A stretch of 11,968 nucleotides of DNA from the IMG/VR virus record IMGVR_UViG_2617270939_000005, one strand, 5' to 3'. Origin of the DNA: a virus. Lineage: Duplodnaviria; Heunggongvirae; Uroviricota; Caudoviricetes. This document shows, in pieces, positions 2,224 through 11,968 of this stretch (position 1 is its first letter; every line of letters begins with the position of its first letter). The translations under genes and the position numbers were made by a program. Under the pieces are notes generated by a model that was not told the DNA's origin, did no database searches, and saw only the letters and a list, made by a program, of their open reading frames with translations.

Positions 2224-2247
2224 AAGGCGCTATAGCGCCTTTCTTTT
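2224..2247. terminator. Bidirectional rho-independent terminator between convergent genes
   Basis: AAAGGCGC-TATA-GCGCCTTT hairpin (core stem GGCGC/GCGCC at 2226-2230 and 2235-2239) flanked by AAAAA on the left and TTTCTTTT on the right. Lies between the integrase stop (2219-2221) and the stop of the convergent minus-strand gene (2246-2248). Confidence 0.6.
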
Positions 2248-2620
2248 AAACATCAAAGATGACATCACCATGATACGCGTTAAACTGCGGATTCCGCATG
2301 ATGGTGATCACTTGCTGAACTACCCACTTTGCACCGATATCAAGTTCATGCTCTATAGCGCACGGTATAGCAATACCAGATTTCTGACACTTGATAGTGA
2401 AGGAAAATCCCTCATCTTTGCCTAGAATTGTCTGCAAGTGTTGTCCAATGAAATTTGTAAAAATCACTCTCAACTCAGCTAACGTGATTGGAGGTTTATT
2501 ACGCGGATCATTAAGTCTATCAACAGCAAAATGAAATGACATCTTTAGCTTGGCTCTATCTTCTTCCAAGATATCGTTAATATCTGCAACTAAATCATCA
2601 ATCTGCTGTTGAGTTATCAT
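2246..2620 (-). CDS. Hypothetical protein, 124 aa, second gene of low-GC two-gene cassette
   Basis: ATG at 2618-2620 overlaps the upstream gene's TGA (ATGA overlap, translational coupling). Acidic protein with no motif I recognise. Sampled 60-nt blocks in the cassette give roughly 37-42% G+C, against ~50-53% in the neighbouring operon. Confidence 0.6.
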   Translation of the reverse strand: MITQQQIDDLVADINDILEEDRAKLKMSFHFAVDRLNDPRNKPPITLAELRVIFTNFIGQHLQTILGKDEGFSFTIKCQKSGIAIPCAIEHELDIGAKWVVQQVITIMRNPQFNAYHGDVIFDV

Positions 2621-2826
2621 ATGTGTGCAGCCGTGATCTCAGCTAATTTCTTGTTCAACTCTTCATCGTTTGAAGCTGTGATGGTGCCTACAAATTCAGT
2701 GCGTGATAAAGTACCAGCACGCACATCGAATTCGTAGTTGTCAAACGAATCAACGACGACAAACGCCTTGGTTGCTGGGTTAAAAAACGATGCACAATTT
2801 TGGTTTGTACGCATATCAAAGTTCAT
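2617..2826 (-). CDS. Hypothetical protein, 69 aa, first gene of low-GC two-gene cassette
   Basis: ATG at 2824-2826 preceded by a strong AGGAGG Shine-Dalgarno (reverse complement of CCTCCT at 2831-2836). Acidic small protein, no recognisable motif. Confidence 0.6.
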   Translation of the reverse strand: MNFDMRTNQNCASFFNPATKAFVVVDSFDNYEFDVRAGTLSRTEFVGTITASNDEELNKKLAEITAAHI

Positions 2827-3027
2827 ATTATCCTCCTACCCCTTCAAGGGAGATGTAGGAACGAAGTATTCTCAAGTTGAAGCTCAGTTTGGAGACATAT
2901 TAGGAAACTGTTTTATGCTCAGCCTACGCAATCTACGTCAATCCGTCAAGAATTGTTTTAAATATAGGCAAGTAACAAGGCAGCCACAACAACACATAAC
3001 CGAATGAAAATAAAAGAAATAATCTCA

Positions 3028-3465
3028 TCACGCATGTTGTCTTGGATAAATAACGCCCAACCCCTTGTATTGTCGGCGGTAGGCAGGTAGCATGCTTAAC
3101 ATGCTACCTCGTGAGAGTCCGCACAAATTTCCCACATAATAACCACCTTCCGCTGCATTGGCCGAACGATGAACCACAGCGCGCACACGTCCAGTTCGGT
3201 GACAGTGATCCAATACAGCAGACGCGAGGCGTAGCGGCTTAGCTGTCACCGCGCAGCGTCGGTATTGATAATTCCACAGGAAGACACGGACAGCGGCCAC
3301 ATCAGCGCGGCGCAACTCCAGCCGTCCTGAACCATTCAACAGGAAGTGATACACATCATCGAACGCAGCAGAATTTTTAATGCGTTCCGCTAGCGGCATG
3401 TTGCCGAGATATTCCAGATAGCCTCGCATCGCTTTTCTTAGTAGTTGGTCTGTCCGTGTAACCAT
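3028..3465 (-). CDS. Hypothetical protein, 145 aa, last gene of the structural-type operon
   Basis: ATG at 3463-3465 with GGAGG 9 nt upstream; overlaps the preceding gene by 28 nt. Function unknown. Confidence 0.55.
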   Translation of the reverse strand: MVTRTDQLLRKAMRGYLEYLGNMPLAERIKNSAAFDDVYHFLLNGSGRLELRRADVAAVRVFLWNYQYRRCAVTAKPLRLASAVLDHCHRTGRVRAVVHRSANAAEGGYYVGNLCGLSRGSMLSMLPAYRRQYKGLGVIYPRQHA

Positions 3466-3737
3466 GATTCAAAGCCTCCACTGTCAGATGCAGCCCGTTT
3501 GCAGGCTTCGTATTCTTCGCGCTGGCGTTGGCATACCAGAGCATAAAGCTCGGCGGCCATCGCATTAACACGTTCGTCACTGATACCATTGCGGCGCATC
3601 AGCCCCAGCAGCTTACGAAATTTAGCTTCAAGCTCAGGCTCTCCGGTATCCATTACCCACTGTTTCAGGTCAGCGAGTGCGCCAGTCATTGGTGGCGGCT
3701 CGATGTACCGCCACCTTAATTTAATCGTGGTTATCAT
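3438..3737 (-). CDS. Hypothetical protein, 99 aa (start revised to the first ATG)
   Basis: The track ORF 3438..3785 begins with TTG. The first ATG at 3735-3737 has GAGGA 8 nt upstream and gives MITTIKLRWRYIEPPP.... Overlaps the upstream gene's end (3721) by 17 nt. Confidence 0.5.
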   Translation of the reverse strand: MITTIKLRWRYIEPPPMTGALADLKQWVMDTGEPELEAKFRKLLGLMRRNGISDERVNAMAAELYALVCQRQREEYEACKRAASDSGGFESWLHGQTNY

Positions 3738-4146
3738 TTTCTTTATCCTCTCTGTAAGCCGGGTGCATTGCCCGGTATTGCTCAATGGTCAAACCCTCGC
3801 TGGCCGCTGCAAACCGTTCCTTTTGCTTACCCGCCAATCGCAAGGCGCTGTCTCTCCAGCAGAGCAGAAAGAAGATGGTCAGCACCTGCTTACTCAAGCC
3901 ATCCAGAAGATCACCAAGCCCTTGCTCCAGAAGACAGGCACGCCATGCAGCGGCGTGCTCAGTCATAGCACCTACTATCGGGACAGGTGCTCCGAGCATT
4001 GTCGCAAGCTGACTCATAACACTGTTAGCATCGCCCGGATGCAGCCGTGGAATAGTCATGCGGCCAGCCTGCGCCAACAGTTCAGCGTACCGCTGGCGGC
4101 GCGGGTCATCATCTGCCAGCGCTCTAATCGGCTTTTCATCAGCCAT
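3721..4146 (-). CDS. Hypothetical protein, 141 aa; possible small terminase subunit by position only
   Basis: ATG at 4144-4146 with GGAGG 9 nt upstream. Sits immediately downstream of the HNH endonuclease, the position usually held by terS in HK97-like packaging modules. No sequence motif confirms this; it is a context inference. Confidence 0.55.
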   Translation of the reverse strand: MADEKPIRALADDDPRRQRYAELLAQAGRMTIPRLHPGDANSVMSQLATMLGAPVPIVGAMTEHAAAWRACLLEQGLGDLLDGLSKQVLTIFFLLCWRDSALRLAGKQKERFAAASEGLTIEQYRAMHPAYREDKENDNHD

Positions 4147-4164
4147 TAATGGAACCTCCGAGGA

Positions 4165-4692
4165 TTAGGCAGCCTGCAATAAATCGGCTGGCGTTGACGG
4201 ATGGTATCTGGCTTTAGCTTTCAGGTACGCAGCACGCGCCGCCGCTTCGGTAGTGAATAAGCCGAGGTGATGGCGAACACCACCAACGCGAATGTAAGCC
4301 TCCCATCTGCCAGAGCAGGCATGGTGGCTATAACCCTTGGCTTTGCGGTAATTGTGCTGGTTCTCTTGTGGCGTAACCGTGCGGAGATTGATAAGGCGGT
4401 TGTCATCGCGTACCGCGTTGATATGGTCGATTTGCATCCCGGCAGGGATACCGTCATTAGCAATGATGAAGGCGACACGGTGGGCGTATAGCGCATGAGA
4501 TTTGCCATTGATGCGGACAGATACGCGCCTATATCCGGCGCTGTCCGTTACCGTGTCGGCCAGTTCCCCGGCTTTAGCGTAAATCCGCTTGTTGGCTCCG
4601 ATCCGGTCTACTGCATGGAACAGGCGGCCAGTCTTCGCATCGTACCGAAACAAAGAGCGCAACAGCTCCGGGGCATAAGCATCAATATTCAT
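4165..4692 (-). CDS. HNH endonuclease with AP2-type DNA-binding domain (phage packaging-associated HNH)
   Basis: HNH motif IDHINAVRDDNRLINLRTVTPQENQHN (His...Asn...Asn/His spacing typical of HNH_3) and a C-terminal AP2-like segment GRWEAYIRVGGVRHHLGLFTTEAAARAAY. ATG at 4690-4692 with AAGGGG upstream. Confidence 0.85.
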   Translation of the reverse strand: MNIDAYAPELLRSLFRYDAKTGRLFHAVDRIGANKRIYAKAGELADTVTDSAGYRRVSVRINGKSHALYAHRVAFIIANDGIPAGMQIDHINAVRDDNRLINLRTVTPQENQHNYRKAKGYSHHACSGRWEAYIRVGGVRHHLGLFTTEAAARAAYLKAKARYHPSTPADLLQAA

Positions 4693-4708
4693 GGCTCGGC
4701 CCCTTTTG

Positions 4709-5704
4709 TTATGCAGCTTGTCGGAAATTTATAACGCAGTCAGGGCGGCGCAGCCCAACATTGAACAGGCGATATGAGTCCATCACCATTGTCATTTCGC
4801 GTTCATCATCCCACTGGCGATTGATAACGCTCTGCGCTTCGACTGTCACAAGTACAGACGCAGGCCGGAACAGCGTCGCCCGTGTCAGCGCTTCCCCTGC
4901 GGTCACATCATAATCAGCGCCCAGTTCATGCGCGGTAATGGCTTCCTGCGGGTAACTGTTCAGCTCAATAACTCGCACCCCAGCGACATAGCCAACGCGA
5001 CGCCATGCGTAATCATTGCCACTATCCCGGCTGTAACGGACGTTCATCAACTTCTTATGTTCCATCAGGATGCTGAACCAAGCTGGGTCGATGAGAAGGC
5101 ACAGCTCCGCCACCGGAATATCTTTTTCAGTTAGGAATCGATTAACAGCAGCTTTAATAGCGTGAACCAGTTCGTTAGCCGCATCCTCTTCGCTCCCCGT
5201 TGTCAGGTCGAGCGAGACAACATTATCCGTCAGCGGGTTAAACGTTGGTTGCAACGTAGGCGGCGGTACAAAGTCAGTCGCTTTGATTAGCTGGATAGTG
5301 TGCGCTTCGTCGTAGAACTTTGCATGGGCTGTCCCCATGTTGCGGCTCAGCTCTGCGCGAAAGGTGGGCGCTGTCCAGTCGTCTTGATAGTCAATCGGGA
5401 TGCGGATATAGCTCAGCGTATCCACAGAGATAATCAGCTTGTCCGACTTAACGGCGGTAGGCTCCAGCGATTGCCCTGCGGTTCTGCCCTTCACCTCCAG
5501 ATCTCCGCTCAGGCGGTCTACACGATACTGATTACTGTTTTTCAGCGGCTTGTATGTGCTCAGCCCCTCGGCGAGAAACACGCTCTTTGCCTCAAGGCGG
5601 GTCTGAACGTCCCGGTCATACGCTTCAATGTGAATGTCGTTGTCAGCATCTACACCGCCCCAGTGCGGGCGGAATTGGTCAGGGGTATAAACATTGTCAG
5701 TCAT
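4709..5704 (-). CDS. Putative major capsid protein (lambda gpE-like family, tentative), 331 aa
   Basis: ATG at 5702-5704 with GGGAG 9 nt upstream. Size and two segments (LLIDPAWFSIL and the C-terminal W-DDEREMTMVMDS...RRPDCVINF) loosely resemble lambda E-type capsid proteins as I remember them. The resemblance is from memory and not verified by alignment. Confidence 0.5.
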   Translation of the reverse strand: MTDNVYTPDQFRPHWGGVDADNDIHIEAYDRDVQTRLEAKSVFLAEGLSTYKPLKNSNQYRVDRLSGDLEVKGRTAGQSLEPTAVKSDKLIISVDTLSYIRIPIDYQDDWTAPTFRAELSRNMGTAHAKFYDEAHTIQLIKATDFVPPPTLQPTFNPLTDNVVSLDLTTGSEEDAANELVHAIKAAVNRFLTEKDIPVAELCLLIDPAWFSILMEHKKLMNVRYSRDSGNDYAWRRVGYVAGVRVIELNSYPQEAITAHELGADYDVTAGEALTRATLFRPASVLVTVEAQSVINRQWDDEREMTMVMDSYRLFNVGLRRPDCVINFRQAA

Positions 5705-5772
5705 AGAAATAGCTCCCGCGCCAGCGTTAGCCAGCGCGATTTATGGAAAAGGGGAAAAGAGAATGGGATGAA

Positions 5773-6120
5773 TCAGGCAGCAGCTTTTTCAGCCGCGATC
5801 TCAAGAATCAGGCCGATAAGCGCGAAGGCAGGCCAATGGGGATTAAGCTCGTGCAGGTGCGCAACGCCCCCACCAAAAGCATCGCGCATATCAGCACCAG
5901 AGATGCCCGCGCGTTTGGCCGCCCGGCGCAGCAATCGCAGCTCGGAGCCGGGAACATACGCCGAGGGCATACGCACGCCGAAGCGTGAGGCGAGCCGCCG
6001 CCAGTGCGCTTCGTCAGCAAAGTCCTGCTTAAGCTGGCTGGCGTTGGCTTTCCAGTGTTCAATCCTCGCGCTACGGGCAGCCCTAGCCGCTGCCACGTTT
6101 TCAGGTGTCAGTAAGGTCAT
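5773..6120 (-). CDS. Hypothetical protein, 115 aa
   Basis: ATG at 6118-6120 and stop at 5773-5775. Arg/Ala-rich, predicted helical, with only a weak ribosome-binding site. Lies in high-GC DNA where antisense ORFs are common, but it fills the gap between two well-supported genes on the same strand. Confidence 0.5.
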   Translation of the reverse strand: MTLLTPENVAAARAARSARIEHWKANASQLKQDFADEAHWRRLASRFGVRMPSAYVPGSELRLLRRAAKRAGISGADMRDAFGGGVAHLHELNPHWPAFALIGLILEIAAEKAAA

Positions 6121-6279
6121 TGTCAGATCTCAATGCAAAGTGGGTTTATGTGTGGTGTTTGAGAGGTAATTTCGCGTTTTACAGGTGCAGGTATACGAAT
6201 GTACATCTGGCGATGTACAACGCGATTCAGGCTCTAAAACGTAAGGTTAAGACGTGGGGAAGACAGGACAGGCGATTGC

Positions 6280-7806
6280 TTAACGGCCAGCGCGTTTGCC
6301 AGCGGAGCGCTGCGCAACCAGAGCGCGGTATTGATCGTCGTACTGGCGATGGCCGGGGCCATACCCTGATTGCTGCGCCCACTGCGAAAGCTGATCATAC
6401 GCTGCAATAAACTCAGCATGAGACATACCAACAGGTTGCGAGGCAGGCTGGCCGTATGGGTTCCCCTGTGATGGGACATAACCAGTCGCAGTGCCTGCGA
6501 CCATACGCTCTTGCAGATAATGAACCGCCCGCTGCATCTGCGCAGGGTCGCCAGACATAACCATCCGTTCAAGGGTTGATTGCGTCCCGGCGTCGAGCGT
6601 GCCAGCGTACTGCAACATCGCGTCAACTGTCCCCTGCCCTAGCTGGCTTTCGACAGACTGGTGAAACTGCCCCATCAGCCCATGAAGTTCAGGAGTCAAC
6701 TCAACAGTAGTGCCATCCTGTAATTGCAGCGTGTCGCCCACTTGCGCAGCAACATCAATCTGCTGGTCTTGCTGGTTGGCAAAGTTACTTTCGTTCCAGC
6801 TTTGATTAATGTTCGCTGGCTGCGTTTTCAGGAAATCAGCATCAGGTGTTGTCTGGTCGAATCTGCTAGCGCCGTTGTCAGCGCCTACAGGTGCGGCCAT
6901 GTACGGCGATTGCTGCGGCGCAGTATCAGCGCCCGAAAGGTACGGATTAACATTCTGGTCAGCCAGCACATCACTACCACGGGAGAAGATCGCATCAGCA
7001 ACAGACAACTGCCCCGGCCTCCACTCCAGCCCATCGGGTGGCAACAGGCTAACGCGTGCGTTTCGGTCACAGCGAACCAGCGGGCGAAACTCATAAGAGG
7101 CTGTATTCAGTGACGGCACAGACGGCGACACTGCCAAGCCGTTTGGGTCACAATGATGATTTGTACTGTTAAATTTATCCTCGGTAGGTTTCGACTCTCC
7201 ACACCACAATTGACGAAACTCCGCTGAGTCCCCGTAGCGTTTGAAATCTGAATTGCGCATCGCTTCCAGTTTATTCATGCCCCTGTTGATGCGGTGTATA
7301 GTCTTCTCATCACAAATCAGGAACTCGCGGCAGGCTTTGAGAAAAGCATTCTGCCCGGTTGTCGATGCCGAAACGGCGTGCTCGCGCGGTTTCAATGCGG
7401 CATCATCTACGCGAACACCGGGAAAATCAGGCGGCAGCGGGTCAGCATACCGAGCAGGCTTCTTGTTGAGCCACATTTCTATCTCAGCGCGTCGGCAATG
7501 AATTGCGTCACCGGGCTGGATGACTTGCCGCAACCCCGTGTCAGAGCGCTGTTTTTGCTTCTTCGGTTGAACACCATGCAGCGCTCGCCATTCCCGCAGG
7601 GTCATAGCGGAGCCATCAGCATTGTAATAAAACTCTTCGGTCTTCGTGTTGTATGCCGCCTTAACGGGTTTATGCTTTATCGGGCATATCTTGGAACGCC
7701 GAATAACAATCCCGTCAGCGACCATTTGCTGTACATCTGCGTTTGCGGTATTGAGCGGGTCAGCGTCGGCAGCCTGCGCAAGCAAACGGCGTAGGTTCGT
7801 TGGCAT
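6280..7806 (-). CDS. Hypothetical protein, 508 aa: N-terminal region with HTH-like segments, C-terminal half Gln/Gly/Ala-rich low complexity
   Basis: ATG at 7804-7806 with GGAG 8 nt upstream; first gene of the minus-strand operon. Segments AMTLREWRALHGV and QVIQPGDAIHCRRAEIEMWL look like DNA-binding (AlpA/HTH-like) motifs. The C-terminal ~200 residues are Q/G/A/P-rich. No Walker A or protease motif seen. Confidence 0.7.
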   Translation of the reverse strand: MPTNLRRLLAQAADADPLNTANADVQQMVADGIVIRRSKICPIKHKPVKAAYNTKTEEFYYNADGSAMTLREWRALHGVQPKKQKQRSDTGLRQVIQPGDAIHCRRAEIEMWLNKKPARYADPLPPDFPGVRVDDAALKPREHAVSASTTGQNAFLKACREFLICDEKTIHRINRGMNKLEAMRNSDFKRYGDSAEFRQLWCGESKPTEDKFNSTNHHCDPNGLAVSPSVPSLNTASYEFRPLVRCDRNARVSLLPPDGLEWRPGQLSVADAIFSRGSDVLADQNVNPYLSGADTAPQQSPYMAAPVGADNGASRFDQTTPDADFLKTQPANINQSWNESNFANQQDQQIDVAAQVGDTLQLQDGTTVELTPELHGLMGQFHQSVESQLGQGTVDAMLQYAGTLDAGTQSTLERMVMSGDPAQMQRAVHYLQERMVAGTATGYVPSQGNPYGQPASQPVGMSHAEFIAAYDQLSQWAQQSGYGPGHRQYDDQYRALVAQRSAGKRAGR

Positions 7807-7880
7807 GGTGAAATCTCCAAAATTAAGGTGAGTTTAGAACGAGGCGCAGGACGGCAGCGCCGAGCTGCCCGTAGAGAGAA

Positions 7881-7947
7881 TTTCATGTCAGCAGTGACGT
7901 TGAATGTTCTGTCCCTCTTTAGTAGTGACTTTCATGTAGGTCACTAC
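7881..7947. promoter_or_regulatory. Operator-like repeat cluster upstream of the minus-strand operon
   Basis: Perfect 8-bp inverted repeat GTAGTGAC (7922-7929) and GTCACTAC (7940-7947) with a 10-bp spacer TTTCATGTAG. The motifs TTTCATGT and AGTGAC both recur at 7881-7898. Located 75-140 bp upstream of the 508-aa gene start. Confidence 0.35.
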
Positions 7948-8210
7948 GTATGCACAAGCGAGTGGTGTTCGTTTTGCCACAGTAGAAACTCTAATTTGAT
8001 TATTTTTTAATCAACACCTTTGTAAGCCTTGCCCTGTCTGACTTGATGAATGATTTGCTGATAACTTTCAGTAGGTTTGTTGGGATGCTGGGATGTAAGG
8101 GGTTATAAGCGGCATTGTGAGTACCATATCCCAATATAGTACCGTACCACTACTCTATCCCCGCCGCGTTGACTGCCTGGCAAGCACGGTTGCGTGGAGG
8201 GCCGAGCATC

Positions 8211-8260
8211 ACAGCGGGCGAAGGCCGGGAATGAGCCAAAGGCGATGGAGCGGGCTGGAG
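8211..8260. repeat. Degenerate copies of the tRNA-Gly 3' end (relic att-type direct repeats)
   Basis: AGCGGGCGAAGG at 8213-8224 is identical to 888-899 of the tRNA fragment, and TGGAGCGGGC at 8246-8255 is identical to 885-894; both are in the same orientation as the 885-912 repeat. The surrounding 8200-8300 is purine-rich with recurring GAGC...AGCG units. Confidence 0.45.
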
Positions 8261-8629
8261 CATAGCGAGAAGCGCAGCCAGTGTAGAGCGAAAAGCGATA
8301 ACACTGATTAGGAGAAGGGATGAAAGGGAAGAACCCTTTTCTGTACATGTATTTTAAATGCAACTTTAAAGGTAAAACGAAGGTGTTGCCCTGCTTCAAA
8401 TCTAGCTGAGTGATTGGACAACACAGCCTTTGATCCCTTCCCCTGCCCCATCCCTCGAATTGTTCAGTGATAAATCACATTCACAATCTGATCTTGATAC
8501 TCATCGTCTGGCACGGCTAAAGCCCCGCCATCTCTTCATATCAAGAGCCGCAAGTAATACGGAAATACATTATAAATCATACCATTACGAGATTAGGCAT
8601 AACATAAATATCTGATATCAATACAAAAG

Positions 8630-8700
8630 CTGTAGGCCATCCATCACCCACAGCCCAGTAACGGCCAGTGCTGGCATCTCATCAGACTGTAGGTCATCAC
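8630..8700. repeat. Imperfect direct repeat CTGTAGG(C/T)CATC...CAC at the 3' end of the recombinase gene
   Basis: CTGTAGGCCATCCATCAC at 8630-8647 and CTGTAGGTCATCAC at 8687-8700; the second copy overlaps the recombinase stop codon at 8697-8699. Significance uncertain. Confidence 0.35.
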
Positions 8701-9329
8701 TCTGTAACGCTGGCGGACAGCTCACGTTTGATACGGTAGAACGTTGCCCGGCTTATCCCGGCAGCTTTCATGATGTGCTCTGGTTTATTCCCAACGGTAA
8801 GCATAGCGCGGACAGTTTCACGGGCGCTCTCATCCTTAGACTTCCCGTTATATTTCCCCTCGGCTTTGGCACGCTTGATGCCCTGCGCTTGGCGTGCTCT
8901 GCGTGTCTCGTAGTCCACTCGTGCCATCGTAGCGAGGATATCAATCAGCATTGCGTTAACAGCTCTCAGGATGCCCTCTGTAAGCTCTGACGCCGTATCG
9001 TTCAGTAGTTGCCATGAGGTTGGCAGGTCAACGGCAACGATCACCAGTCCCTTATCCTGAATCCTCTGTTTCAGTGTCGCCCATTCCTTTTGCGTAAGGC
9101 GGCTTAGCCTGTCGATGCTCTCGACAAGCAAGACCTCTCCGGCCTGCGCATCATCCAGCAAGCGCATTAGTTCAGGACGCGCCAGCCTCGCACCGCTGGC
9201 GTTCTCGATGTACTCCGCCCGTACAGGCCAGCCCCGATCACTGGCGAACTCTCGCAGCAAGCCCAGCGCCCGGTCTGCGTGTTGCTCTGATGTACTGGCG
9301 CGGCAATAGATAAGCGCATTGTGTGCCAT
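8697..9329 (-). CDS. Small serine recombinase (resolvase/invertase family), 210 aa
   Basis: N-terminal catalytic motif YCRASTSEQ (the Y-x-R-x-S-T-x-x-Q serine recombinase signature), the VESIDRLSR motif and a C-terminal HTH (AAGISRATFYRIKRE). ATG at 9327-9329 with GGGGGA upstream. Confidence 0.85.
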   Translation of the reverse strand: MAHNALIYCRASTSEQHADRALGLLREFASDRGWPVRAEYIENASGARLARPELMRLLDDAQAGEVLLVESIDRLSRLTQKEWATLKQRIQDKGLVIVAVDLPTSWQLLNDTASELTEGILRAVNAMLIDILATMARVDYETRRARQAQGIKRAKAEGKYNGKSKDESARETVRAMLTVGNKPEHIMKAAGISRATFYRIKRELSASVTE

Positions 9330-10046
9330 GCTTCCCCCTAAGTCTCAATGAAATATCACAGCAAGACCTATAAGAGATCACATCAATAATGTGTAGTCAA
9401 TAGAGTTTTATAGATAGTCAAATGAGACAGTGTGTCTATGTCTTTATCAGGTATACCCGAAAGAGACTGGCACCGCCCCACAGCAGCATTCCCCGGCACA
9501 TCCAGCGAACACAGCGTAGAGCGCACGCAGCAGATCAGCACGGCACCGCCACGATCTCGAAATCACAAAGGCATTGAATCACACATTGGAAGCACAGAAC
9601 GCAGCACAGAGCGATACAGATCGTTTTAGAGGGATGTACAGATACACAGTGAAAGGCAGATGATCGCAGCACTCGTCCCACACGGTTATTCAGCAACAGC
9701 AATCAGCCAGCATCTCGCTCAGTAGCACGCTCCTGTAATGCTTGTCTCGGATGAGCAAAATCTTAGGGTTTCTCAGCGACCCCTGACGCGCGGGCACGCA
9801 CATGCACACGGGGGCGCGGGCGAGCTATAGAGTTGAGGGAGGGGCAACCATAAGCGTGCAATTTTCAAGCTGGGACTTTTAACAGTGGGATTGTGGGGCT
9901 GTTTTGCATTCAGAGAGTGAGGCTGTGGGGGAGCCCTCCTTGAACCAAATAATGCGAAACTGATCATTCTTCCACGTAGCTTAGGCCACTTTGCATGGAT
10001 AATTAGCACCAAACACAGCAGCCAGTTTAAGAGAAATGCGCGACAT

Positions 10047-10265
10047 CTACCGTCTGCGTTTACCCCAGCGCTGCATTATGGCTCTGTGTGCTTCATCCGC
10101 TGACCATTCAATAGGTACAACAACGTGTACAGGCATTTCATCGCCAGAGGGGGCACCACGTAAATGGACTCTATACCCTAGTTTATTAAGTTCTACCTCG
10201 GACATCGGTGATATAACCTCGCCGCTATGGCTGCCGCCAACAAACTCAGCTTTAAAATCCAACAT
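10047..10265 (-). CDS. Hypothetical protein, 72 aa (doubtful)
   Basis: ATG at 10263-10265 lies directly downstream of a G9 run on the minus strand (C9 at 10267-10275 on plus) that could serve as a Shine-Dalgarno-like element. Its composition is more protein-like than the overlapping plus-strand ORF 10036..10359 (Ser/Thr/Pro-rich). No homology recognised. Confidence 0.35.
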   Translation of the reverse strand: MLDFKAEFVGGSHSGEVISPMSEVELNKLGYRVHLRGAPSGDEMPVHVVVPIEWSADEAHRAIMQRWGKRRR

Positions 10266-10266
10266 G

Positions 10267-10275
10267 CCCCCCCCC
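10267..10275. repeat. Homopolymeric C9 tract (G9 on minus strand)
   Basis: Nine consecutive C read directly at 10267-10275, immediately 5' of the 72-aa minus-strand ORF start and inside the alternative plus-strand ORF. Confidence 0.9.
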
Positions 10276-10355
10276 TACACACTAACAAGAATCATTGAAG
10301 GTGTATCACCCAGCAACTACGCTGGGCAGAACATCACCTCGGACTATCAATCAAC

Positions 10356-10814
10356 TTAGTATCGCTTTGTGTCTCGTAGTATTACAGACAGTAACCACCA
10401 CCATTGGCGTTTGATCCAACAAACATCACTGAACATCTTGCCGTCAGATGTTTTGATATAAACCCCGCCACGATGATGCACTTTGTTGTGATGAGCCTTA
10501 TTTATGAATGGCACGTTCAAGACCATTTCGTCTCGTGCTTTCAATCTTTTTGGCAGCATCGGTGTGATCATGTTCTCGTCCGAATATTCGTCGGATAACA
10601 TTCTAAGGCGTCCACTGGCTGTTACCACACCGGCTGCACTCAACGTTACATCGTGTGCGCTTATGTTCGAAACGTATATCCTGTCCTCGTGCTGATCACA
10701 TCCGAGATAAAGCCTTAGCGATGTTCTGGATTTTAGTAATTGAAATACGGACAAAGCAAAACCCGCCCACGCCGCGATCCCTGTCCAGTTATCTGTTTGG
10801 GTGATCCAAGTCAT
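10356..10814 (-). CDS. Hypothetical single-pass membrane protein, ~152 aa
   Basis: The track ORF starts with TTG at 10815-10817; the ATG at 10812-10814 overlaps the upstream gene's TGA (TGATG), indicating coupling. The N-terminal stretch WTGIAAWAGFALSVFQLL is a probable transmembrane helix, followed by a soluble domain with a His/Lys-rich segment (KAHHNKVHHRGG). Confidence 0.6.
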   Translation of the reverse strand: MTWITQTDNWTGIAAWAGFALSVFQLLKSRTSLRLYLGCDQHEDRIYVSNISAHDVTLSAAGVVTASGRLRMLSDEYSDENMITPMLPKRLKARDEMVLNVPFINKAHHNKVHHRGGVYIKTSDGKMFSDVCWIKRQWWWLLSVILRDTKRY

Positions 10815-11041
10815 CAAGGCTGCATCCCCTTCGACATAAGATACTTAACGATCCCTTCTCGTTGCCTATTACTCAGCTGAAAACATTTGTCTAGTTGAGA
10901 TAAAACCTGCTCGACATCATCTGCCAAGATGGCACTAGCTGCACGAGCGGGGAGATCTCCCTGAATTTTGATAGTGAAATACCCTGAAGATATTGATAGC
11001 TTCAAAAAACAACCTGCTGAGAACTCGTAACTCTCGCTCAT
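10814..11041 (-). CDS. Hypothetical protein, 75 aa, first gene of the minus-strand operon
   Basis: ATG at 11039-11041 with AGAGG about 6 nt upstream; stop overlaps the start of the membrane protein gene. No motif recognised. Confidence 0.55.
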   Translation of the reverse strand: MSESYEFSAGCFLKLSISSGYFTIKIQGDLPARAASAILADDVEQVLSQLDKCFQLSNRQREGIVKYLMSKGMQP

Positions 11042-11113
11042 AACCGCCTCTGTTGCCAGTTTTTCAGTAAACTGACAGTATATTCCTGAACCTTTATTAC
11101 ATCACGCGCACAC

Positions 11114-11125
11114 AAAAAAAAAAAA
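11114..11125. repeat. Homopolymeric A12 tract in a divergent intergenic region
   Basis: Twelve consecutive A read directly at 11114-11125, between the divergently oriented 75-aa gene (start 11041) and 259-aa gene (start 11189). Confidence 0.9.
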
Positions 11126-11188
11126 TGACCGACTCAGTTCGCAAATTTCTGGATAATCTATCCATACAATAATTATCAAGGATAAGTT

Positions 11189-11968
11189 ATGTCATCAGAT
11201 AACTTCGTGACATTTTGGCTTGCTAAAGTAGATCGGCCCTATTTTCTTGAACCTCACGAATTTTATGTTTCGGAAGCAAGACGGAGACTTTTGTCTCAGT
11301 TTGGGGATCTGACCCAAGAGGCGGAGGAGCGAGAGAAACAGTTTCTGGAGTATACCGCTGAGCATTTCAATCCTGATTTTGACGACCCAATGGCAGCCTA
11401 TGAGCAAGCATATGAGGAGGGTGTAAACTACGTCTGGTCACTTATTGAAATGCAAGAAACTGTTCTTTTGGCAGTAACTGCGGGTATGTATCACCAGTTC
11501 GATAAAAAGTTACGAGAAAAAACGATCAGAGAATTGTCTCATTGGTGTGATAAAGAGATCATTACACCAATGGTTTGGGATTTAAATTTTGATCAACTGT
11601 TGAAACTGCTCGAGTGGATCGGTCTCAAGATAGATGAAACTGATTATGGCGATAAGCTCAAAGCGTGCGCATTAGTCGTAAATGTGTACAAACATGGTGA
11701 TGGAAATTCTCACCGCCTCCTATCATCAACTCATCCAGAATATTACCCTCATCCTACTGGTATATGCGGCAGACATATCAATCCTACTCATGATGATCTG
11801 CATGTAACAGAAGAACAGTTTGTTGAATTTGCTGATGCAATAACAACATTTTGGAAAGCAATACCAGAATACTGCTATTACTCCGAACTGTCGGATGAGC
11901 CAGAGTGGTTAATTAAGCTTGTAAAAAAGAGCGAAAAGAAGTTAAGAAAAGGAAATACAAGGCCATAA
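11189..11968 (+). CDS. Hypothetical protein, 259 aa, AT-rich gene; contains an R-x5-H segment (HRLLSSTH) reminiscent of HEPN motifs
   Basis: ATG at 11189 with AAGGA 6 nt upstream; the TAA stop coincides with the window end (11966-11968). A sampled 60-nt block gives ~38% G+C. The HEPN suggestion rests on a single short motif and is speculative. Confidence 0.7.
   Translation: MSSDNFVTFWLAKVDRPYFLEPHEFYVSEARRRLLSQFGDLTQEAEEREKQFLEYTAEHFNPDFDDPMAAYEQAYEEGVNYVWSLIEMQETVLLAVTAGMYHQFDKKLREKTIRELSHWCDKEIITPMVWDLNFDQLLKLLEWIGLKIDETDYGDKLKACALVVNVYKHGDGNSHRLLSSTHPEYYPHPTGICGRHINPTHDDLHVTEEQFVEFADAITTFWKAIPEYCYYSELSDEPEWLIKLVKKSEKKLRKGNTRP

Follow-up and report, generated by a model that had tools for sequence, protein, structure and literature searches.

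The virus record IMGVR_UViG_2617270939_000005 from IMG/VR is a stretch of 11,968 nucleotides (hereafter the window), nearly identical to a stretch (locus L001) of the Escherichia coli (E. coli) chromosome NZ_LR536431.1 and carrying an E. coli island of roughly 11–13 kb. We describe here the last part of the window, positions 10047–11968, where four genes form accessory cargo of this tRNA-integrated mobile island, in a slot of varying content. As outlined in a preliminary description of this DNA, the interval contains open reading frames (ORFs) for 72, 153 and 75 amino acids (aa) on the minus strand and, divergently, for 259 aa on the plus strand; we name the products after their lengths. p75 (10814–11041, minus strand) is small and soluble, and its gene shows translational coupling to that of p153 (10356–10817, minus strand), a membrane-tethered protein (RefSeq WP_000219901.1, starting from the ATG at 10814). 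p72 (10047–10265, minus strand) is a facultative small-protein gene, separated from p153 by a 90-bp spacer (10266–10355). p259 (11189–11968, plus strand) encodes a predicted HEPN-fold protein, a member of PHROG 19541 (RefSeq WP_023063078.1).

The genes p75 and p153 overlap in a TGATG sequence, the p75 stop codon TGA (10816–10814) running into the p153 start codon ATG (10814–10812); an alternative TTG start lies at 10817. The coordinates of the two genes also overlap by 4 nucleotides in the gene-called homologous loci L004, L005 and L007–L009. Homologues from other genera show saturated synonymous (pS) and low non-synonymous (pN) divergence, with pN 0.14–0.18 versus pS 0.73–0.76 for p153, 0.27–0.40 versus 0.79–0.91 for p75, and 0.14–0.17 versus 0.73–0.77 for p259; p75, p153 and p259 are therefore considered real genes under purifying selection. 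Of the four genes, PGAP annotated p153 (152 aa, counted from the ATG) and p259 alone; in homologous loci, p75 was recognised upstream of p153 by other gene callers.

The divergent intergenic region between p75 and p259 (11042–11188; 35% G+C) was aligned with its counterparts in four homologous loci. It contains a conserved ribosome-binding site of p75 (GAGGnGGTTATG), a run of 12 T and two inverted repeats that are short and imperfect (11054–11077 and 11149–11180). A scan for promoters and terminators gave matches no commoner than in shuffled sequence, including one sigma-70-like match at chance level (11195–11166, minus strand).

The preliminary description recognised no families among the four products. 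This holds for Pfam, NCBIfam and PADLOC, and p259 matches PHROG 19541, a family of unknown function. At a limit of E 0.1, none of the four proteins had a match in PADLOC-DB 2.0, and nothing meaningful was found in PDB sequences with p72, with the family profiles of p75, p153 and p259, or with a 182-aa neighbour discussed below. Searches with p259 and p153 (tblastn) against 50,697 phage genome records returned no match.

p259 and its HEPN signature

Homologues of p259 form 43 clusters across Enterobacterales, Burkholderiales and other proteobacteria. In an alignment of 40 sequences, extending down to 33% identity, G99, H102, K106, R109, the segment N165-V-Y-K-H-G-x-G172 and several aromatic residues are invariant, and D105 is nearly so, being replaced with Glu in a few sequences. 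The AlphaFold model of p259 is helical and confident (predicted local distance difference test (pLDDT) 89.5, predicted template modelling score (pTM) 0.84). The [DE]105-x3-R109 element lies within a helix spanning residues 67–116, two inserted helices span residues 122–143, and V164-N165-V-Y-K168-H169-G170 occupies the C-terminal end of helix 152–169, followed by a Gly-rich loop.

HEPN domains are described with motifs in helix 2 (typically Ex3[KR]) and at the end of helix 3 (Rx4-6H), where the residue after Arg is usually Asn, Asp or His; inserts between helices 2 and 3 are common (PMC3710099). The first of these features is present in p259 as D105-x3-R109. In the second, the motif position and residues N165 and H169 are kept and the arginine is absent, its place (V164) being taken by Val, Ile, Thr or Ala in all 40 sequences. 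Since the arrangement of helices and motifs, the arginine aside, fits the published description, p259 is assigned a predicted HEPN fold with an atypical, arginine-less signature, an assignment that carries no implication of catalysis. A weak Pfam HEPN match (PF05168, E 0.005) is found in one of the 40 family members, and the window protein itself has no Pfam match. Another segment, R-x5-H, had been proposed as the HEPN-type motif; it is indeed present (R174...H180), but both residues vary across the family and we rejected it as HEPN evidence, the present call being based on other residues.

Several HEPN groups provide points of comparison. The families Parep1/8 and c2405 keep the histidine and lack the arginine, and activity is considered possible in families of this kind that conserve other basic residues (Anantharaman et al. 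2013, PMC3710099). Unlike p259, which has no AbiTii match, proteins of the c2405 type carry a fused N-terminal AbiTii domain, and Parep1/8 is an archaeal family. The MNT-associated HEPN toxins (SO_3166 5yep, 7ae2; DUF86-type) are approximately 130 aa long, contain RNxxxH and are partnered with a nucleotidyltransferase antitoxin gene, whereas p259 is twice as long, lacks the arginine and has no MNT neighbour. A precedent is HepS of the Salmonella prophage Gifsy-1 (PDB 9oik), a lone HEPN protein that senses infection and aborts it, with J as the trigger (PMC13043305). Like p259, HepS is a solitary HEPN fold (218 aa versus 259 aa) encoded in a prophage accessory locus with no obligatory partner, and some p259 homologues are located directly after tail tip J genes. 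However, HepS has the canonical R100-x4-H105 in place of V-N-x3-H, and a search of PDB sequences with a p259 profile showed no similarity to HepS at E up to 10; p259 is not a member of the HepS family. It may at most work like solo HEPN abortive-infection proteins.

The genomic neighbourhoods of p259 relatives are diverse. In Moellerella, and also in L026, they come after the genes for tail tip J and the tail fibre, where a lambdoid prophage ends. Others are found inside a tail gene cluster on the opposite strand, in the interval from gpA/ogr to portal gpQ of a P2-like prophage, with a PycTM-domain gene alongside, in an Enterobacter island adjoining a resolvase gene and an AAA_13 gene, and next to a Tad2-like anti-defence gene on a viral contig that also has a ParM-type partition gene. 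Self-contained accessory genes ("morons") are distributed in this way. The P2 gpA–gpQ locus, defined as a defence hotspot by Rousset et al. (2022), serves as a reservoir for anti-phage systems (PMC9122126), and both the p259 and the p153 families occur there. In addition, Table S10 of the DefensePredictor study (2026) lists WP_023063078.1 as a "putative novel defense gene" with a mean log-odds of 10.19, among 1,041 uncharacterised predicted defence clusters and with no HHblits or Foldseek hit (PMC13092281). No validation of this protein was found in the text of that study and a part of its supplementary tables (PMC13092281).

Taken as the first unit of the cargo, p259 would most likely act on its own in abortive infection or against phages, as other prophage-borne HEPN proteins do. 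We infer that it would stay inactive until triggered by a phage component and would then cleave or bind RNA, stopping phage production.

An unlikely competitor is a non-catalytic p259, acting as a regulator like MtlR/YggD, as a ligand or nucleotide binder, or as a phage anti-defence factor. It agrees with the family-wide replacement of the Rx4-6H arginine, given that HEPN proteins that lost the motif, among them nucleotidyltransferase-fused HEPNs and a subset of MtlR, are known as non-catalytic (PMC3710099); the homologue adjoining the Tad2-like gene and one family member with a C-terminal helix-turn-helix (HTH)-like extension point in the same direction. On the other side, H169, N165, K168, D105, K106 and R109 are invariant or nearly invariant in the 40 sequences, which is the pattern to be expected of an active site; HEPN proteins that lack the arginine and keep the histidine are, as said, possibly active, and DefensePredictor, in the table cited above, scores the cluster as defensive.

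p153, its upstream partners and p72

p153 is predicted to consist of an N-terminal transmembrane (TM) helix (approximately residues 12–28), a cytoplasmic immunoglobulin (Ig)-like beta-sandwich (approximately 34–130) and a Trp-rich basic C-terminal helix (134–151). Its close homologues come from Enterobacterales only, and a profile search of 1.84 billion representatives added only 24 more distant relatives of 142–179 aa. All relatives share the hydrophobic N-terminal helix, a flanking [KR]xR[TN]S, a V-x-N-x-S-P-H-A-V-T strand and a C-terminal RRxWWW. The single-pass membrane character suggested earlier is clear family-wide (mean KD17 of 1.79 in the 24 relatives), while the window protein taken alone is borderline (KD19 of 1.15); its AlphaFold 2 (AF2) model has a helix at residues 11–30. 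Because basic residues follow the helix (Lys plus Arg: 0.6 before and 2.5 after it in the 24 relatives), the positive-inside rule predicts an N-out/C-in orientation with a short periplasmic N-terminus and a cytoplasmic domain.

No match to p153 was found in Pfam, in PDB sequences or to SieB. Identification as a lipoprotein, spanin or holin was rejected, as there is no conserved lipobox or coiled coil: Cys40 follows the charged residues K29, R31 and R35 and is replaced in close and distant homologues, and the soluble part is a beta-sandwich. One distant relative stands alone beside portal gpQ in a P2-like prophage and another lies 45 bp downstream of a gene with an AbiTii domain, a setting that resembles lactococcal AbiT (AbiTi/AbiTii). 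However, the window has no AbiTii domain, and AbiTi, described with an endoribonuclease-like domain (PMC13064643), was rejected as a relative of p153 with its predicted TM helix and beta-sandwich. Further parallels are the membrane effectors of hotspots (P2/P4 TM proteins, PMC9122126; small prophage exclusion proteins), which p153 resembles in size, anchoring and loci, and also in being paired with variable upstream genes; the difference is that none of the Pfam and PADLOC models searched corresponded to a TM helix combined with an Ig-like domain in the cytoplasm.

Immediately upstream of p153 homologues, p75 is conserved at 37–58% identity, and its rate of evolution is about double that of p153. 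It has no match in Pfam, PADLOC, PHROGs, NCBIfam or PDB sequences, and no DNA-binding or antitoxin domain was detected in it. The gene upstream of p153 is not constant: p75 takes this place in some loci, a gene for a 182-aa protein bearing an RNxxxH motif or for an AbiTii-domain protein in others, and elsewhere there is no partner; in several metagenome loci the neighbours are unrelated. Intact p153 homologues without p75 are found in E2348/69, Kosakonia, L059, L064–66, L070 and the P2-hotspot relative (L049), and p153 homologues are under purifying selection (dN/dS approximately 0.1).

The 182-aa protein, whose RNxxxH motif (GRLRNITVHADW) looks canonical, is encoded directly upstream of p75-less p153 homologues in E2348/69 (L002, 11535–12083) and Kosakonia (L015, 5371–5919). 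It matches neither Pfam nor PADLOC, and hhalign and BLASTP comparisons with p259 aligned only the motif region, below significance, with its motif opposite V-N-x3-H of p259 in weak local alignments. The pair of 182-aa and 156-aa genes recurs in E. coli and Kosakonia, and adjacent locus tags or accessions point to its presence in Enterobacter and Dickeya as well. A 2.6-Mb metagenome contig (L060, 2248–7867) has, within 6 kb, a gene of the 182-aa type and homologues of p153 and of p259, the last of these 47% identical, being the only locus seen where the three families stand together.

With p153 constant and the gene upstream changing, an effector whose sensors or regulators can be exchanged is a better fit than a strict toxin–antitoxin pair. 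As the second unit, p153 would then act at the membrane as an effector or exclusion protein gated or sensed by its upstream partner. The contrary proposal, which we consider improbable, is that p75–p153 is a toxin–antitoxin or addiction pair stabilising the island, with p153 as membrane toxin, p75 as antitoxin and no role in phage defence. Two small genes overlapping at TGATG or by 4 nucleotides, the smaller one first, a faster-evolving upstream gene and a location on a mobile element would all suit such a pair. Yet p153 persists intact and under purifying selection where p75 is missing, unlike a type II toxin, which is always accompanied by its antitoxin; moreover, p75 shows no detectable DNA-binding or known antitoxin domain and p153 is unlike known families of membrane toxins.

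The third unit, p72, would be an extra small gene that travels with p153 in a few loci. Most related loci lack it, among them those of Raoultella, Klebsiella, Serratia and Citrobacter, and it has no PGAP annotation. A copy in Kosakonia is 94% identical (98% in DNA) and lies downstream of a p153 homologue that has neither p75 nor p259 beside it. With four non-synonymous and no synonymous differences, this comparison suggested a spurious ORF, a view reversed by the homologue in L069: diverged (42% aa and 48% nucleotide identity, E 2e-17, pN 0.42, pS 0.86), it has the same length and is kept in the same position downstream of p153, so p72 is regarded as a real gene. By eye, a hairpin and a promoter-like sequence precede the L069 homologue. 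p72 is probably its own transcription unit, outside the conserved p75–p153 pair, and a comparison of p72 with p75 revealed no relation between them. A run of nine G (10267–10275, minus strand; six G in Kosakonia) ends one base before the p72 ATG and could vary in length by slippage, altering p72 expression. A 107-aa ORF antisense to p72 (10036–10359, plus strand) is open in Kosakonia and interrupted in L069, and is probably not a gene.

Co-occurrence of the genes and the variable slot

The preliminary description treated the four genes as one module and as a candidate system. In the co-occurrence check this gene set is not conserved as a unit. Approximately 30 loci have p259 homologues with no p75 or p153 within 6 kb, Serratia has p75–p153 without p259, and several p153 loci lack all of the other three genes. 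p259 and p75–p153 do form a recurrent divergent block, its intergenic region conserved, which is found in E. coli, Raoultella, Klebsiella and Citrobacter and in some sequences of uncultured origin. These loci are 70–78% identical, and the examined ones are placed at the island end adjoining a recombinase or integrase gene; shared descent explains the block as well as functional linkage does.

The slot itself extends from a resolvase gene to the tRNA, and the order of resolvase, cargo and tRNA is repeated in related islands. Among six related E. coli islands examined, the content differs, being one of four kinds: a hypothetical protein of 304 aa; small ORFs accompanying a DUF4145 protein; two hypothetical proteins accompanying a DUF3800 protein; or, in E2348/69, the 156-aa and 182-aa genes together with a TM protein. 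The full gene set as found here occurs in one of 5,426 complete E. coli genomes, and exactly these proteins are present on approximately 530–640 contigs of a large collection. The inner edge of the slot is marked by a non-coding segment of about 150 bp (window positions approximately 9727–9875) downstream of the recombinase gene, which is found at 90–94% identity in about 100 complete E. coli genomes, including in islands at tRNA-Leu. It could be a recombination or regulatory site; the region 9300–11968, this segment included, has no Rfam match to a non-coding RNA at E up to 1. The G+C content is 43.2% in the interval, 40.6% in p259 and 35.4% in the divergent intergenic region versus 52.1% in the island core, so an earlier figure of 38–40% for the region of the 259-aa gene was slightly low. 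The location beside a recombinase in a tRNA-associated island was described correctly, with the resolvase gene at 8697–9329 and the tRNA context considered below.

We therefore favour, with a probability of about 0.5, the reading that the interval forms the variable, cargo-bearing end of a satellite-like island, in which p259, p75–p153 and p72 are separable uncharacterised units. All of them occupy the kind of site at which anti-phage genes are usually found in mobile elements. The cargo would comprise at least two, probably three, such units placed side by side by recombination, and a defence role for p259 and p75–p153 is plausible from their context. Going further, it is possible, though we hold it rather doubtful, that p153 represents a new family of non-enzymatic, membrane-tethered Ig-like effectors with interchangeable sensors and that p259 is an arginine-less HEPN enzyme with another catalytic arrangement (N165, K168 and H169 together with D105, K106 and R109), or else a binder. 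Among the P2/P4 hotspot systems published in 2026 (Crouga, Bandua, Aernus, Toga, Reve and Hailong), none resembles these genes by description.

Several observations weigh against this reading. The same divergent arrangement of p259 and p75–p153 in five genera could mean a functional link. All functional statements on these genes are based on context and fold. For p259, a Foldseek search of the model against PDB gave nothing significant, the profile has no family-level match in PDB sequences or Pfam, the motifs were assigned to helices 2 and 3 by secondary structure and not by superposition, and the missing arginine may mean that the protein is not a nuclease. For p153, the model is of low confidence (pLDDT 66) and its beta-sandwich a generic fold, the family, with the 24 relatives included, has no match in PADLOC 2.0 or PHROGs, and its retention without p75 speaks against a toxin strictly needing p75.

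The opposite view, that all four genes make one defence system of small sensors or antitoxins, a membrane effector and a HEPN-like nuclease, seems to us quite improbable. It draws on the divergent neighbourhood of p259 and p75–p153 with its conserved intergenic region, seen in several genera and in metagenome and viral contigs, and on the repeated presence of a HEPN-type fold or motif near p153 relatives (p259, the 182-aa protein, or both in L060). Against it stand the numerous p259 loci lacking the pair, the Serratia pair lacking p259, the p153 loci lacking all the others and the presence of p72 in only a few loci.

The host island and the significance of its cargo

The element is a phage-satellite-like integrative island at tRNA-Gly, with the cargo lying between the resolvase gene and attR. 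Its left, att-like boundary is a 28-bp direct repeat of the tRNA-Gly 3′ end (885–912), found by blastn against L001 and L003. The partner att copy is located within tRNA-Gly, approximately 430 bp past the window end on NZ_LR536431.1, and is annotated at 17697–17770 of L001; ARAGORN detected no tRNA inside the window. A tyrosine integrase is encoded at 971–2221, a homologue of a phage major head protein at 4709–5704 (PHROG 267, E 3e-67), and a serine recombinase of the resolvase/invertase family, at the island-side edge of the slot, at 8697–9329 on the minus strand (Pfam Resolvase, E 6.8e-25, plus HTH_7). Other island genes encode EndoVII-like and HNH nucleases, and the complete copy adds a scaffold-like protein and a DEAD/DEAH helicase. 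Window positions 2246–9329 (5199–14630 of L001) look like a satellite making its own capsid parts; neither a portal nor a terminase was detected in the island, which was not matched to a named satellite family.

The copy in the window is probably defective. A 508-aa ORF (6280–7806) is a fusion in which the N-terminal part of the helicase is joined in frame to the scaffold-like gene; the junction has a 4-bp overlap (6962–6965), and 2.9 kb present in NZ_LR536431.1 (9919–12816 of L001) are absent from the window. Conversely, about 550 bp at the 3′ flank of the resolvase gene (8194–8742) are absent from the otherwise identical NZ_LR536431.1 and are present in E2348/69 at 90% identity. Outside the island, at the left end of the window, a 74-aa ORF (103–327) appears by eye to be a transposase fragment; in its place NZ_LR536431.1 has an IS1 element adjoining the integrase.

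That the genes serve the life cycle of the satellite (interference with a helper phage, lysis or regulation of induction) and not host defence is very improbable: they do lie inside an island encoding major-head and scaffold-like proteins, and several close p153 loci are in comparable islands with capsid-family genes, but related E. coli islands lack these genes or carry others in the slot, so their functions are not core ones, both families are also known from elements of unrelated kinds (prophages of the lambdoid and P2-like types and the viral contig with the ParM-type gene), and p153 has neither a conserved lipobox or cysteine at position 40 nor a spanin-type coiled coil.

Returning to the reading of separable cargo units, p259 and p153 are both uncharacterised, and one of them has already been flagged by machine learning; for now both count as well supported, among many such candidates. 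What is mechanistically unusual is the arginine-less HEPN signature of the former and the partner swapping of the latter, an Ig-like membrane protein. If p259 protects against phages, it would be a widely scattered single-gene HEPN system without the arginine thought to be needed, offering a test of active-site flexibility, and one of the roughly 1,000 machine-predicted E. coli defence clusters in the DefensePredictor table would become a characterised system. Were p259 the arginine-less enzyme or binder considered above, it would open a new mechanistic branch of solo HEPN immunity in prophages and satellites. If p153 is an effector, its partner swapping would be a compact case of modular defence assembly at recombination hotspots and, should it represent the new effector family considered above, a new kind of abortive-infection or exclusion module. 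The host element would show a cargo hotspot in capsid-encoding satellite-like islands, comparable to those of P4 and P2.

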